A stretch of DNA of 64,000 bases from Myxococcota bacterium (GCA_049322475.1 JBMOQZ010000244.1:21600-85599); one strand, 5' to 3'. Positions 40,843 through 45,664 are shown, numbered from the stretch's first letter. Program-made: numbers and translations. Notes: generated from the letters alone by a model not told the origin.

Positions 40843-42696
40843 CTACTCGGTGGCGGGCGCCCCCAACGTCGTGATCCACGCGGCGACCGCCCGTGCGGTG
40901 TCCTCCGGCTGGGTCTCCGGGGGGTGTCGGCCGCCGGGCACGACCGAGGGTCCGAGGGTCAGCATGGCGACGACGTAGTCGGGATCGAGGCGGTCGCGGG
41001 CGCCGTCGAGCACGGGCCCCTTCATCTCGCCCACGCCCTCGGCCACGTGGCAGGCCGGGCACCCCAGGCTCTGGTACTCGGCGCGTCCGCGCGCGATCGT
41101 CGCCTCGTCGACCGCCCACCCGGTCTCGGCGATGCGGTCGTCGCCCAGGGTCGTCTCGATCCACGCGGCGAGCCTCCGGGACTCCTCTTCGGAGATCCCG
41201 AGCACGGGCATCCGCTCCGCCTGGTCCATGCGGATGGTCACGGGCTCCACGAGGAAGCGCTCGAGCCACTCCCGACGGACGCGCGCCCCCACGCCGTCGA
41301 GGGGCACGCGCGAGATGTCCCCTCCTTCGCCGCCGATCCGGTGGCACACGAGACAGCGGTAACGCTGGATGATCCGGCGAGTCTCGCCGGACGGCAACGA
41401 GGAGCGGGCACCTTCGGGCTGGACGACGTAGTCGGCGGGCGGCGCCTCCTTCCGGAGCGAGGCCAGCGCCACGCCGATCGCGACGGCCTCCTCCTCGCCG
41501 AGGCTCGTGAACGCGGGCATCCGGGCGGGACTGCCGCCCGGGCTGTCGAAGGCGTGCGGATCGCGCGCCTTGCGGGCGATCCACGCGGGCAGGTCCGGCA
41601 GCGCTCCTTCGGCGGCGCGCGGGAGGTCGTCCCGGCGGCGGCTCCCGAGAGACGTGAGTGCCACGCCGATCCGCTGGCGCGCCACGTCGCCGGCGGCGTG
41701 GCAGCCCGCGCAGCCGAGCTCCGCGTACCGGGCGCGCCCCTTTGCGGCGAGGGCGGGGTCGACCGGCGCCTCGAGCGTCGCCCACGGCAGGCCCGCCGTG
41801 TCGGGAACCCACTGCTCGCGTGCGTAGGCCACGACGTCGGCGGCGTCCTGCTCGGAGAGGCGGAACCCGGGCATCCGCGTGTCGGCACGGAGGCGGTGCG
41901 TGTCCATCAGATAGGCGGCCAGCCACCCGGGCGCGAGCTTGGCGCCGGCCGTGGAGAGGTCGGGCGCATGGCCGCCCCCGCGTTCCTCGATGCGGTGGCA
42001 CGTCGCGCAGCGGCGATACGACACCACCCTCCGGCCACGCTCCGCATCGCCCTCGACCCCGAGCGCCTGGACCTCGGGTCCCGGGAGCGAGAACAGGAAC
42101 GCGAGAAGCGCGTCGCGATCGTCCTCGGTGAGCGTGAACACCGGCATGCGGTGGTCCGGGTTGAGCGCGCCCGGGTCGAGCAGCCACGCGCGAACCCAGC
42201 CTGGCGTCACCTTGTCGCGGAGGCCGTCGAGGCGCGGCGCGAAGTCGGGCAACCCGTAGCCGGGGACGTCGTGACAGCCGGCGCACCCGCGCTCGTCCAG
42301 CGCCACCCGCCCGCGGGAGAGGACCGGCGCCCCCTCCACCGAGCTCCCGAGGTGACACCCGCCGCACGCGGCCTCCCGCTCGGCGGCCGAACGGAGCGGC
42401 CACTCCCAGTCCAACGCCGCCTCGTGCGCGCCCTCTTTCGTCGTGGCGAGCCCCTGCCCGCCGTGGCACGGGGTGCAACCGAAGCGCTCGACCGGGTGCT
42501 CGTCCACCCAGTTTCCCGGATGGTCCGCCGCGTCGTGGCACGTCTCGCAGCGGTCCACGACGTCGAGCGCCGCGACGATGCGCTGCTCGACCTCGATCGG
42601 CCGCCGGACCTCGCGGGCGATCGCGGCGCCGACGAAGGCCACGGTGGCGCCGAGCGAACCGACGAAGAGGACGTCCAGCCAGCGAGGGTGTGTCAT
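40843..42696 (-). CDS. Membrane-anchored octaheme cytochrome c
   Basis: N-terminal TM; 8 CxxCH motifs (CETCH, CTPCH, CGGCH, CAGCH, CATCH, CAGCH, CLVCH, CPACH). Confidence 0.92.
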   Translation of the reverse strand: MTHPRWLDVLFVGSLGATVAFVGAAIAREVRRPIEVEQRIVAALDVVDRCETCHDAADHPGNWVDEHPVERFGCTPCHGGQGLATTKEGAHEAALDWEWPLRSAAEREAACGGCHLGSSVEGAPVLSRGRVALDERGCAGCHDVPGYGLPDFAPRLDGLRDKVTPGWVRAWLLDPGALNPDHRMPVFTLTEDDRDALLAFLFSLPGPEVQALGVEGDAERGRRVVSYRRCATCHRIEERGGGHAPDLSTAGAKLAPGWLAAYLMDTHRLRADTRMPGFRLSEQDAADVVAYAREQWVPDTAGLPWATLEAPVDPALAAKGRARYAELGCAGCHAAGDVARQRIGVALTSLGSRRRDDLPRAAEGALPDLPAWIARKARDPHAFDSPGGSPARMPAFTSLGEEEAVAIGVALASLRKEAPPADYVVQPEGARSSLPSGETRRIIQRYRCLVCHRIGGEGGDISRVPLDGVGARVRREWLERFLVEPVTIRMDQAERMPVLGISEEESRRLAAWIETTLGDDRIAETGWAVDEATIARGRAEYQSLGCPACHVAEGVGEMKGPVLDGARDRLDPDYVVAMLTLGPSVVPGGRHPPETQPEDTARAVAAWITTLGAPATE

Positions 42697-43838
42697 GGCG
42701 GCCACCACATCAGCGCCCAGGCCGGGCCGCGGAAGAAGGTCCCGAGGATGGTCACGGCGACGAAGAAGAGCCCGATGGCCACGAAGACGGCGCACGCGAC
42801 GCGTCGTTCGCGGGGCCAGTAGCGGCCGAGCCCGCCCGCGTGGCGGTCGAAGTACGGCAGCGCGCAGAGGACCGCGACGGTCGCGCCGGGCACGAACACG
42901 CCGCCCCAGAACGCATGGTAGTGCGCGAGCTCCTGGATGCCGAGGAAGTACCAGGGCGCCTTCGCCGGGTTGGGCGTTCGTGTCGGATCGGCCTCCGGCT
43001 CGAGGGGAGCGTCGAAGGCGAAGGAGATCGCGAGCAGCGCGGCGACGACGAAGAACGCGACTGCGAGCTCGCGGTAGACGAGGTGCGGCCACGCGGGGAC
43101 GAGCCTCCCTTCGCCCGTGGGCTGGTTGGGAGCGTGCTCTGAGGTCACGAGCCCCCCGTCCCTGCGCACCCGGTACACGTGAAAGCACAGCAGCGCGCCC
43201 AGGACGCCCGGCAGCACGACGCAATGGAGCACGTAGAAGCGCAAGAGCGCCGCTTCGCCCACGACGTGATCGCCGAGCAGCAGCAGCGCGGCCGGCTCGC
43301 CGAGCACCGGCACCGACGCGACCATCTTCGAGCCCACGGTCACGGCCCAGAAGGCGAGCTGGTCCCACGGCAGGAGGTACCCCGTGAACGACAGCGCGAG
43401 CGTGAGCACCCAGAGCCCGACGCCTGCGACCCAGTTGGCCTCGCGCGGCGCCTTGTAGCCGGCAGACAGGTACACGCGGACCATGTGCAGCGTGACGAGC
43501 GCGACCATCCCGTGCGCCGCCCAGCGGTGGAGGTTTCGCGTCAGCATGCCGAACGGCACGACGAAGGCGAGATCCTTCATCGACCGATAGGCCGCGTCCG
43601 GGTGCGGCACGTAGTAGAACATCAGGTAGAAGCCGGTGACGACGAGCTCGCCGACCAGCACGAGCGAGACGAAGCCGAGCGCCCACGTGGCCATGAACGT
43701 CAGCGAGGAAGGACGTACCTTCGGCGCATGCAGGTGGAGCACGAACGAGGAGCGCATGGCGAGGAGCGCCTTCCGGTCGTCCCCCGGCCACCCGACGCGG
43801 AAGATCGAGTCGCGCACGCGAGTCCAGAGGGTCCGCAC
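42693..43838 (-). CDS. Cytochrome b (b6 + subunit IV type, single chain)
   Basis: LHRWAAH...LH, FTGYLLPWDQ, RFYVLH...FH, AKAPWYF. Confidence 0.95.
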   Translation of the reverse strand: MRTLWTRVRDSIFRVGWPGDDRKALLAMRSSFVLHLHAPKVRPSSLTFMATWALGFVSLVLVGELVVTGFYLMFYYVPHPDAAYRSMKDLAFVVPFGMLTRNLHRWAAHGMVALVTLHMVRVYLSAGYKAPREANWVAGVGLWVLTLALSFTGYLLPWDQLAFWAVTVGSKMVASVPVLGEPAALLLLGDHVVGEAALLRFYVLHCVVLPGVLGALLCFHVYRVRRDGGLVTSEHAPNQPTGEGRLVPAWPHLVYRELAVAFFVVAALLAISFAFDAPLEPEADPTRTPNPAKAPWYFLGIQELAHYHAFWGGVFVPGATVAVLCALPYFDRHAGGLGRYWPRERRVACAVFVAIGLFFVAVTILGTFFRGPAWALMWWPP

Positions 43839-43841
43839 GGC

Positions 43842-44291: not shown

Positions 44292-44347
44292 CGGGTCGCT
44301 CCGGCGTATGGGGGTGTGATCAGGACGTGCATGGGACCCTCCTCGAG

Positions 44348-45664
44348 TCAGAACGCGACGGCGTACTCAATCGCGGCGAAGCGGAACCCCGCCGCCTCGC
44401 CGGGCTCGGCCCCGAGCCCGGCCATCGCCCGGACGAGGACGTTGGGGCGCACGACCGCGTTCGCCACGGCGAGGCCGAGCCAGTCGGCGCCCCCTTCGTC
44501 GATCCGCCGCACCTCGAGGCGCGCCGTAGGGAACACCACCGGCGTGGCCACCCACGACACCTCGGCGTAGAGCTGGTCCGCATCGACCGGGAGACCGTCG
44601 TCCGCCGCGGTGTGGCTCTCGCGGGCGACGACCACGTCGACGAGCAGGTCGCCGAGCGCCGCGTGGGCGTCGACGCCGAGGCGCAGGATCTCATCGTCCG
44701 CGAATTGGACGACCTCTCGCCCGCTCCACGCCGACGCGCCGACCGTGAGGCTCACCTCGCGCCAGGCGGCCGTGCCGGCGACACCGCCGGAGCCGTCCAG
44801 CGGCATCCCGCCGATCTTGACCTCCGCACGCCCCCACGCGTCCTTCGCGAGGAAGGTCGCCGGGGTCGTGTTCTCCACGACCCCCGCCGTCCATCCGATC
44901 CGCCTGGCGGCGACGCCCGACAGCTCGAGCCCGTTCCGGTACGGCTCGACCGCGAACGTCGCGTCGCCGACGGGCTGGGTCGTGAGCCTCAGCAGGTGCC
45001 CGGTGAGCCCGCGGTGGATGGTGACCCCATGGACGTCGGGCTCGAAGCGTCCGACGCGGACGAGGAGCGTCGAGGGCCGGGCGAGCGGCGTGAACACGAC
45101 GTTCGCGCGCTCGGCCTCGATCGCCTCGTGTCCGCCGACGTTGACGGCGGCGAAGAAGGACACGTGGTCGCCCAGCACGCCACCGGCGCGCAGGCCGAGG
45201 GACTCCACCGCCTGCGAGAGGTCGAGCTCCGCCTCGGCGACGTCCTCCATGTCCTCGTGCGCACCCCCGGACGACTCCGTGGAAGAGACCTCCTCGTCGC
45301 CGTGCGACATCGCCTCGAAGGCGCTCCCGTACTGTACCTTCCCGGCGATCGTGACCGAGAGTGGCAGCCTCCCGGGGATCTGCCCGGGCCAGACGGCCGC
45401 CGGCCACCGCTCCGCCTGCGCATCGTTCCCGAGCGGGACGGGCTCCTCCTTCTCCGAGACGGCGTCGCCATCCTCCGGGAAGTGGTATGCGTTGCGCCGG
45501 AACGCCTCGCCGAAAGGGGTGAGCTTGGGGTATGCGAGGTGACAGGTCTGGCAACTGGTCTCGTAGCGGCGCGCGAACGCAGGGATCGCCCACGCGCGTT
45601 CCGGCGCCACGAAAATCGCCAACGTCACGAGGCACAGACCCCATCGGCCGATCGCGCGGATCAC
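44348..45664 (-). CDS. Cyc2-like outer-membrane cytochrome-porin fusion
   Basis: Signal peptide [37 protein letters not shown]; beta-strand-rich body ending in F; GGGAG RBS before GTG. Confidence 0.75.

Follow-up and report, generated by a model that had tools for sequence, protein, structure and literature searches.

Introduction

Outer-membrane cytochromes of the Cyc2 type, represented by Acidithiobacillus ferrooxidans Cyc2, Mariprofundus Cyc2 PV-1, and Leptospirillum Cyt572, combine a signal peptide, an N-terminal CXXCH heme-binding motif, the signature AXPXFAR..Y, a PXL motif, a length of more than 365 amino acids, and a 16-stranded barrel like those of OprO and OprP. In the iron-oxidation chain of A. 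ferrooxidans, Cyc2 is followed by rusticyanin and then by CycA1 and the PetI bc1 complex, which works uphill to quinone. The pet operon of this organism has been described (PMC10654088), and the oxidation of Fe(II) is the sole demonstrated activity of Cyc2 proteins according to the accessible portion of one study of the family (Keffer 2021, PMC8406198). Here, we analyze a 64,000-nucleotide stretch of DNA from a Myxococcota bacterium (GCA_049322475.1, JBMOQZ010000244.1:21600-85599; hereafter the window), in which a gene for a Cyc2-like cytochrome-porin heads an operon (positions 40843-45664) that also encodes a Rieske protein, a cytochrome b, and an octaheme cytochrome c, and that shares an operator palindrome with neighboring copper genes. 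Based on gene content and a structural model, we propose, with a probability of roughly 45%, that the operon encodes a conduit under copper control that joins the outer membrane to a quinone-linked complex and oxidizes Cu(I) and/or Fe(II).

The window protein has the Cyc2 features listed above but differs in carrying R in place of Q or K in the signature and a long His/Met-rich first loop; moreover, its gene heads a Rieske/b-complex operon and is tied to a copper regulon. With the A. ferrooxidans chain, the system shares a heme-porin, c-type cytochromes, a Rieske/b complex, and a cupredoxin, the last encoded by relatives and by two of the paralogous operons. In contrast to that chain, the components are encoded here in one operon, the c-type subunit is an octaheme protein, and the cytochrome b is fused and b6-like; in addition, the host is not an acidophilic iron oxidizer, and the window copy is without the cupredoxin. 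In its workings, the system would resemble the uphill Cyc2/rusticyanin/bc1 branch condensed into a single operon; its kinship with the Rieske/b clusters of anammox bacteria and of the Geobacter Ext system is more distant than that with the NAD(P)-linked module of other loci. A further comparison is offered by the Rieske/b complexes of anammox bacteria, for which the available text of one study describes a proposed subunit binding nicotinamide adenine dinucleotide (phosphate), or NAD(P) (PMC12954380). A GltD-like subunit with flavin adenine dinucleotide (FAD), NAD(P), and iron–sulfur sites is missing from the window operon and is present in 18 of the 24 full modules found in foreign genomes.

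CueO-type multicopper oxidases share the operator with the operons and adjoin them, both here and in a genome of a different genus (G011). Under the explanation that we favor, both systems would remove reduced metal outside the cytoplasm. Fold and cofactors are unrelated, however, and whereas multicopper oxidases need oxygen, the heme-porin route would feed the respiratory chain.

Organization of the Operon

The window is about 72% G+C, and third-position G+C (GC3) was therefore used to separate genes from spurious open reading frames (ORFs). Between 40843 and 45664, the minus strand carries four tightly packed, co-oriented genes whose reading frames are all intact and whose intergenic spacings are, in order, 56, 3, and -4 nucleotides. 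GC3 is 0.91-0.93 for the three of the four genes measured. The operon comprises the following features:

44348-45664, minus strand: cyc2-like cytochrome-porin gene, 438 amino acids, GTG start at 45664, single CXXCH, terminal F
44288-44332, minus strand: what is left of a deleted cupredoxin gene, namely its ribosome-binding site, its ATG, and a mini-ORF of 14 codons with a stop that overlaps the Rieske start codon
43842-44291, minus strand: Rieske 2Fe-2S subunit, 149 amino acids, Pfam PF00355 (E = 5.7e-15)
42693-43838, minus strand: cytochrome b, 381 amino acids, Pfam PF13631, PF00033, and PF00032
40843-42696, minus strand: octaheme cytochrome c, 617 amino acids, eight CXXCH motifs, Pfam/NCBIfam Cytochrom_C, Cytochrome_CBB3, and Cytochrome_C7

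The longest ORF for the cyc2-like gene reaches 45715. The start is placed at the GTG at 45664, which a GGGAGA ribosome-binding site precedes by seven bases, and the resulting 438-residue form agrees with the database entry. The protein contains the string AMSHGDEE...AHEDMED in a first loop (residues 114-154) of His, Met, and acidic character. The Rieske protein begins with MNRRNFVRR, which includes a twin-arginine motif (RRNFV), and carries CTHLGC and CPCHGS; NCBIfam models of b6f and bc1 Rieske proteins match it below their cut-offs. In the cytochrome b, a b6-like N-terminal part is fused to a subunit-IV-like C-terminal part, with His pairs at 104/118 and 205/220, and the closest solved relatives are cytochromes b6 (E = 1.5e-41). 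The ATG of the octaheme gene overlaps the cytochrome b stop (ATGA), and its product consists of a hydrophobic N-terminal helix serving as a membrane anchor, a c7/c3-like multiheme part, and class-I-like domains with four RMP motifs. The operon thereby encodes together the hallmarks of the bc1/b6f superfamily, namely a Rieske protein with CxHxGC and CxCHxS and a cytochrome b with two His pairs. A preliminary description of the locus had listed four co-oriented genes for a monoheme porin-like protein, a twin-arginine Rieske protein, a cytochrome b, and a membrane-anchored eight-heme cytochrome c, and every detail that it gave was found.

No sigma-70 promoter was predicted between 40200 and 46000, inspection by eye revealed no sigma-54 -24/-12 element beside the operator, and a terminator scan returned three hits, all within genes and close in number to the shuffle expectation.

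Fold and Family Membership of the Cyc2-Like Protein

An AlphaFold2 model of the cyc2-like protein, built with 64 relatives, reached a predicted local distance difference test score (pLDDT) of 88.6 and a predicted template modeling score of 0.85. It shows an N-terminal domain of about 75 residues followed by 16 long strands. A Foldseek search with this model retrieved 16-stranded general and specific porins, with OprP (2o4v) at rank 4 (E = 4e-10) and OprO (4rjw) at rank 20; the same two structures are given as the structural match of Cyc2 in the accessible text of Keffer 2021 (PMC8406198). Structure prediction, which the preliminary description had named as a check for a beta-barrel, thus returned one of 16 strands.

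As far as its available text goes, the same study defines Cyc2 proteins as porins of at least 365 amino acids with a signal peptide, in which a single CXXCH is preceded by AXPXFAR[Q/K][T/Y] and followed, at a distance of four residues, by PXL (Keffer 2021, PMC8406198). The window protein has, by inspection, a hydrophobic N-terminal stretch ending in AWA before IPAF, one CQTCH, PKL four residues past it, 438 amino acids, and a predicted 16-stranded barrel resembling OprO and OprP. Its signature, AIPAFARRY, fits eight of nine positions and has R where Q or K is required, so the published screen would drop it. In a set of 274 family proteins, 269 carry the motif, which ends in KY in 162, QY in 2, and RY in 103, and 151 of the 269 conform to the strict published form. 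Exactly one CXXCH is present in all 269, always three residues past the motif; the available text of Keffer 2021 (PMC8406198) puts the motif five residues upstream.

In a FastTree phylogeny of 56 sequences, the RY clade that includes the window protein is nested among other family members, and the protein is filed as Cyc2-type because these include strict-motif members. It is best regarded as a Cyc2-type protein with one conservative substitution (R for Q/K), assigned by published motif, length, and predicted fold rather than by comparison with a named Cyc2. The N-terminal motif that had been noted as typical of Cyc2 is accordingly present in an R-for-K variant. Named families gave little further guidance. 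Pfam returned no family for the protein, a PDB sequence search with the family profile returned no match, and NCBIfam returned only TrbB, at 16.7 bits against a cut-off of 132. No named Cyc2 occurs among the best 120 matches, all of which are "hypothetical protein" entries from uncultured bacteria; a canonical Cyc2 would fall in the more distant tail. A protein-atlas look-up led to unnamed clusters, one with Porin_O_P on 12% of its members.

A His/Met-Rich Loop and an Adjoining Lipoprotein

Residues 114-154 form a long segment of low confidence between strands 1 and 2 of the model. Porins usually have both termini in the periplasm; if that holds here, the segment presumably constitutes the first surface loop. 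In all 34 aligned sequences of the window clade (at least 43% identity), the loop spans 29-59 residues and contains 7-22% His plus Met, compared to 3-6% in the remainder of these proteins, with HGH, MAGMDM, and HSH as frequent strings. In 23 of 30 more distant members, the loop is at most 23 residues long and in most cases contains neither His nor Met. Proteins that handle Cu(I) or Cu(II) typically have stretches rich in these two residues. By analogy, the loop may be a sign of copper handling, which we treat as a lead.

A lipoprotein gene with its own operator copy is convergent to the operon:

40340-40825, plus strand: His/Met lipoprotein, 161 amino acids, rich in Met, His, Asp, and Glu, with an operator copy at 40307-40325

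The lipoprotein is predicted to fold into a four-helix bundle (pLDDT 88.0), and three Cys, five Met, and two His residues are invariant across six homologues. Pfam and NCBIfam gave no match, and a fold search returned only generic four-helix bundles. The gene also adjoins the operon in a paralogous copy on contig C38 of the same assembly, in G011, and in a foreign locus, L001.

A Shared Operator Links the Operon to Copper Genes

Two adjacent copies of a palindrome, TGTGAC-N7-GTCACA, sit in the divergent intergenic region that the cyc2-like gene has in common with orf173:

45734-45752: operator copy 1, two mismatches, 70 nucleotides upstream of the cyc2-like start
45765-45783: operator copy 2, one mismatch, 101 nucleotides upstream of the cyc2-like start

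With up to two mismatches, this 19-mer occurs nine times in the window compared to 1.44 expected, and its core, GTGAC-N7-GTCAC, occurs ten times with up to one mismatch compared to 3.35 expected; neither count was reached in any of 100 shuffles. Across the whole genome, 38 operator sites with at most one mismatch were found, as opposed to a single site for the reversed-pattern control. Both of the other cyc2-like operons of the assembly also lie behind the operator, and the site on C38 is perfect. In the window, the following copper genes surround the operon:

38713-39333, plus strand: DUF305/CopM-type periplasmic protein, Pfam PF03713 (E = 2.9e-26), NCBIfam CopM at 67.9 bits (cut-off 90)
50856-51059, minus strand: YHS-domain gene, PF04945
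about 51178-52617 (start probable), plus strand: CueO-like multicopper oxidase, PF07732, PF07731, and PF00394
56481-59354, plus strand: CopA-like P1B-type ATPase with two HMA domains, E1-E2_ATPase, and Hydrolase

Operator-like sites with two mismatches each lie by the DUF305/CopM gene at 38712 and 39337, and the YHS and multicopper-oxidase genes diverge from an operator copy at 51127-51145. Further sites in the window are located just upstream of genes for an Ig-like lipoprotein, the His/Met lipoprotein, a small membrane protein, and an acidic DTDTD-repeat lipoprotein. Elsewhere in the genome, the operator precedes further multicopper oxidases, a DUF305 gene, an HMA-domain gene, and paralogues of the His/Met lipoprotein, as well as genes for Cys-rich small proteins, NHL-repeat lipoproteins, a thioredoxin-like protein, and two sigma-54 response regulators; a second YHS gene (C337) has a site immediately downstream.

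The operator extends to other genomes. In G011, two of the four sites flank the cyc2-like operon, and the order (operator, cyc2-like, cupredoxin, Rieske, cytochrome b, octaheme, convergent His/Met lipoprotein, operator, multicopper oxidase) is that of the C38 layout. A further genome, G020, has 12 sites (control, 1), and those inspected adjoin multicopper-oxidase, CopA, and HMA genes; a search of G020 did not find a cyc2-like gene. Both the copper island around the operon and the shared upstream palindrome, as reported in the preliminary description, were therefore borne out, the former by the DUF305/CopM, YHS, multicopper-oxidase, and two-HMA ATPase genes, the latter by its excess in window and genome and its recurrence in a second genus.

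Several other genes are associated with the operator or the copper zone. The genes orf173 (45833-46354, plus strand) and orf378 (46351-47487, plus strand), which diverge from the cyc2-like operon across the operator, have no Pfam or NCBIfam match; paralogous pairs stand behind the operator on contigs C133 (81% and 93% identity) and C137 (52% and 76%), near CopA or multicopper-oxidase genes. A 425-residue protein (49567-50844, plus strand) likewise has no family match, and its 88% identical paralogue lies upstream of and divergent from the cyc2-like operon on contig C259, where it overlaps an operator copy. The DTDTD-repeat lipoprotein (63234-63644, plus strand) is behind the operator at 63163-63181. 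Acidic-repeat lipoproteins are also found behind the operator on C7 and C283, and one lies near the G020 operator sites. Small Cys-rich proteins (..CI.AC.DCAQ.CV..) directly behind the operator are encoded at L097:257-733 (minus strand; contig C244, just past the end of the window) and L092:1915-2379. They had no Pfam match at 1e-4 and resemble the four-helix-bundle copper-storage type. Upstream of the copper zone lie two histidine kinases with a sigma-54 response regulator (22416-26686, minus strand) and an integrase-core (rve_3) transposase-like gene (16947-18365, plus strand). A DUF4423 protein encoded behind an operator copy was considered as the regulator and set aside: its long N-terminus, rich in Pro, Met, and Cys, probably reflects an ORF called too far upstream, which would leave the site about 0.5 kb from the likely start.

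The Module in Other Genomes

A pattern scan of one genome per species identified at least 560 loci with cyc2-like relatives. The best 80 were kept as foreign loci, and their genes were counted by tblastn with the window proteins. According to record titles, they derive from Myxococcota/"Deltaproteobacteria", Acidobacteriota, Ignavibacteriota, Bacteroidota, Eisenbacteria, Zixibacteria, and others. In 28 of the 80, genes for a Rieske protein and a cytochrome b follow downstream on the same strand. Where the downstream sequence extends for at least 7 kb (56 loci), the complete Rieske, cytochrome b, and octaheme set is present in 24. A synteny survey, another of the checks initially put forward, thus showed the set to be conserved.

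In 19 of the 24 full modules, the cyc2-like gene is immediately followed by a gene for a cupredoxin, and the modules include a GltD-like gene in 18 cases and a monoheme lipoprotein gene in 20; a cupredoxin gene is still present in 28 of the 32 loci that have at least 7 kb downstream but are without the full set. In five loci (L001, L003, L012, L015, and L055), eight-heme homologues come after cytochrome b, and Pfam identified Copper-bind with CarboxypepD_reg, Pyr_redox_2 with Fer4_20 and Fer4, and Cytochrom_C domains there. Compared with the GltD-containing module of other loci, the Myxococcota-type version has the same order of cyc2-like, Rieske, cytochrome b, and octaheme genes, but its cytochrome b is fused rather than split, and it is without the GltD-like flavoprotein and monoheme lipoprotein genes (0 of 7 loci each: L001, L002, L003, L006, L008, L009, and L104). 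No GltD-like gene was found in the window operon or beside its two paralogues, and matches in the genome were only distant (contigs C260 and C205). A scan of metagenome contigs for close relatives returned one irrelevant locus.

In 18 of the 80 loci (judged from the 24 with matches), the cyc2-like/cupredoxin pair is instead followed by a set resembling Alternative Complex III (ACIII) or Qrc, in which a pentaheme cytochrome, an ActB/QrcBC-like protein, and an NrfD-like membrane protein replace the Rieske/b complex:

ACIII/Qrc-like loci: L027, L028, L030, L035, L037, L039, L043, L056, L057, L060, L061, L064, L066, L068, L069, L070, L076, L080

One of these, L037, gave QrcA-, QrcB-, QrcC-, and DsrP-like matches. 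Altogether, 46 of the 80 loci pair the heme-porin with a quinol:periplasmic-carrier oxidoreductase of one of these two kinds, many of the remainder being cut-off contigs, and this pairing argues that heme-porins communicate with the quinone pool. Our literature search found no paper linking Cyc2 to a co-encoded Rieske/cytochrome b module or to quinone-linked complexes, and the accessible portions of the literature on Cyc2 with "cuprous oxidase" and on Cyc2 in Myxococcota contained no description of this operon.

One foreign locus from Acidobacteriota has an additional multiheme gene. L055 encodes, at 4734-8069 (plus strand) and about 1.7 kb upstream of its cyc2-like gene, a 1111-residue protein with nine CXXCH motifs and MtrC/MtrF-like, PKD, and Ig domains.

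Three Paralogous Operons and Loss of the Cupredoxin Gene

The assembly, a metagenome bin of 409 contigs that is 96% complete with 6.17% contamination, carries three paralogous operons, on contigs C244 (the window), C38, and C259. Identities of the two paralogues to the window copy are as follows:

cyc2-like protein: 74% and 74% (tblastn), or 74% and 75% (HMMER)
Rieske protein: 81% and 84%
cytochrome b: 91% and 91%
octaheme cytochrome c: 79% and 73%

In the tree, the three cyc2-like proteins group with one foreign metagenome sequence, which indicates that the copies arose within this lineage. Of 40 related genomes, 24 belong to the same family and 16 to the same order; a homologue with E <= 1e-20 was detected in only 2 of the 40, and the module is therefore accessory.

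The C38 and C259 operons keep a cupredoxin gene of 170-190 codons between the cyc2-like and Rieske genes, with products 69-70% identical to that of L001. At this position, the window operon has just 56 nucleotides, in which the GGAGG and ATG of the paralogues are retained and followed by 14 codons. The mini-ORF is a deletion scar that kept translational coupling to the Rieske gene. The preliminary description had suggested that the conduit may be self-contained; the four genes do stand together, yet the set was not originally self-contained, because it represents a five-gene operon reduced by deletion of the cupredoxin gene. An unrelated Myxococcales locus, L009, likewise joins its cyc2-like and Rieske genes directly.

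The deletion could in principle mark the window operon as a redundant paralogue that has been disabled, its frames being open because the event was recent. Reduction of the cupredoxin gene to a 14-codon remnant and the presence of two fuller paralogues are consistent with such decay, as is a multicopper-oxidase 3' fragment at 47367-47717, which indicates that the island has undergone rearrangement. We consider this explanation very unlikely, however: all four genes are intact, with GC3 of 0.91-0.93 in the three measured; their products are 73-91% identical to the paralogues; both operator copies and the coupling to the Rieske gene were preserved; and L009 independently shows the same direct junction. 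The fragment itself (plus strand) looks like a truncated oxidase left by such a rearrangement, with a 116-residue ORF ending in the C-terminal copper-site region (HCHILEHAELGMM), and its DNA is 81% identical over 64 nucleotides to the 3' end of the intact oxidase (52527-52590).

The cupredoxin also bears on what the copper signal means. Rather than reporting a substrate, copper could signal the availability of a cofactor for the cupredoxin carrier of an iron-oxidizing or general extracellular electron-uptake system, comparable to the switch between plastocyanin and cytochrome c6. The cupredoxin gene is the most constant neighbor of cyc2-like genes (19 of the 24 full modules and 28 of the other 32 loci) and is kept in two of the three operons of this genome, and Fe(II) oxidation is the only activity demonstrated for Cyc2 in the available text of Keffer 2021 (PMC8406198). 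Even so, the operons reside among resistance-type genes (multicopper oxidases, CopA, DUF305/CopM, and HMA) rather than general respiratory genes, the window copy retains two operator copies despite being without the cupredoxin, and the His/Met-rich loop is specific to the window clade. A cofactor switch is thus possible but somewhat unlikely, and oxidation of Cu(I) and/or Fe(II) through a copper-regulated conduit is preferred.

Proposed Mechanism and Direction of Electron Flow

In the scheme that we infer for substrate, direction of flow, loop topology, and partner contacts, the Cyc2-type heme-porin would admit a small reduced metal ion to its single heme, and the membrane-anchored octaheme cytochrome would take up the electron in the periplasm. 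The octaheme protein would fill the role of cytochrome c1 or f in the b6f-like complex of the Rieske protein and cytochrome b encoded with it. The electron could then pass to a terminal oxidase, or the membrane potential could drive it in reverse through the Rieske/b complex to quinone. The operon would then represent a cuprous/ferrous oxidase linked to the respiratory chain that works alongside the oxygen-dependent multicopper oxidases. Membership in the copper regulon and the His/Met-rich loop are the reason for taking the substrate as Cu(I), Fe(II), or both. Inward flow is favored because the proven chemistry of the family is Fe(II) oxidation and the carriers are of the high-potential type. 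A more specific version, in which a copper-adapted Cyc2-type clade would capture Cu(I) with the loop, oxidize it at the heme, and pass the electron through the Rieske/b-octaheme complex to the respiratory chain as an oxygen-independent outer-membrane cuprous oxidase, is at present doubtful.

Alternatively, electrons may flow outward. The Rieske/b complex would oxidize quinol, the octaheme cytochrome and heme-porin would export the electrons to an external acceptor of fairly high potential, for instance Cu(II), chelated Fe(III), or Mn oxides, and energy would be conserved via the Q cycle. Forward quinol oxidation is the usual Rieske/b chemistry, and the cytochrome b is b6-like. A possible precedent is the extHIJKLMNOPQS cluster of Geobacter sulfurreducens, which, according to the accessible part of its description, combines cytochromes with a porin of the outer membrane and has been implicated in the reduction of selenite and tellurite (PMC5877670). 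NCBIfam models of this system match the window proteins below their cut-offs: ExtP at 232.6 bits (cut-off 290) and ExtQ at 62.6 (150), both on the cytochrome b, and ExtS, the model of a c-type cytochrome, at 64.9 (100). The common features are an outer-membrane channel and c-type cytochromes in one cluster, with weak b-type (ExtP/ExtQ) and c-type (ExtS) matches. ExtI, however, is a separate porin-like protein, whereas the window pore bears its own heme. The MtrCAB and PioAB systems also differ, having a separate barrel of at least 20 strands that encloses a multiheme cytochrome, as opposed to a 16-stranded barrel fused to a one-heme domain. Known outward conduits use multiheme chains in larger barrels, and Cyc2 is a single-heme 16-stranded pore according to the available text of Keffer 2021 (PMC8406198). 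Moreover, reduction of Cu(II) to the more toxic Cu(I) would be ill-suited to a resistance regulon, and high-potential carriers, here the cupredoxin and class-I c domains, would serve poorly for delivering electrons to minerals of low potential. Taken together, outward flow appears unlikely.

Several observations weigh against the inward, copper-regulated conduit that we favor. With regard to energetics, the reduction of quinone by Cu(I) or Fe(II) runs uphill and would have to be paid for in membrane potential, and the normal oxidation of quinol by Rieske/b complexes favors the outward direction. With regard to regulation, we infer the copper response of the operator solely from the kinds of genes that adjoin it, and the operator-flanked set also includes a P450-reductase fusion, methyltransferases, trehalose synthase, and lactate/malate dehydrogenase; given this mixture, the signal could be a broader stress. 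Among the 80 foreign loci, none has the operator upstream of its cyc2-like gene (two stray sites in 1.27 Mb), none has a multicopper-oxidase match, and two have a CopA match. The copper link drawn in the preliminary description consequently holds in this genome and in G011, while the module itself is widespread and elsewhere mostly away from copper genes, so the link belongs to this lineage. Finally, the window copy is without the cupredoxin that most relatives retain, and the presence of three copies in one cell depends on correct binning of an assembly of 409 contigs with 6.17% contamination.

Implications

Cyc2 serves as a marker gene for neutrophilic iron oxidation. A Cyc2-type clade that lies within a copper regulon, in three copies and with a His/Met-rich loop, implies that Cyc2-like matches in metagenomes need not mean iron metabolism, and the shared operator hints that such pores may also handle copper. 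More generally, the heme-porin/cupredoxin pair joined to a Rieske/b or ACIII-like complex is a concrete argument for contact with the quinone pool. To this picture, the window adds membership in a copper regulon, triplication, a cupredoxin-less form, and the His/Met-rich loop. The module reaches its smallest form in the reduced Myxococcota versions of four and five genes, which are therefore the easiest to express and dissect. The analysis also raises the idea that cells might oxidize Cu(I) without oxygen. If true, an oxygen-independent cuprous oxidase would protect the cell under conditions in which multicopper oxidases are unable to function, and it might even allow energy to be conserved from Cu(I).

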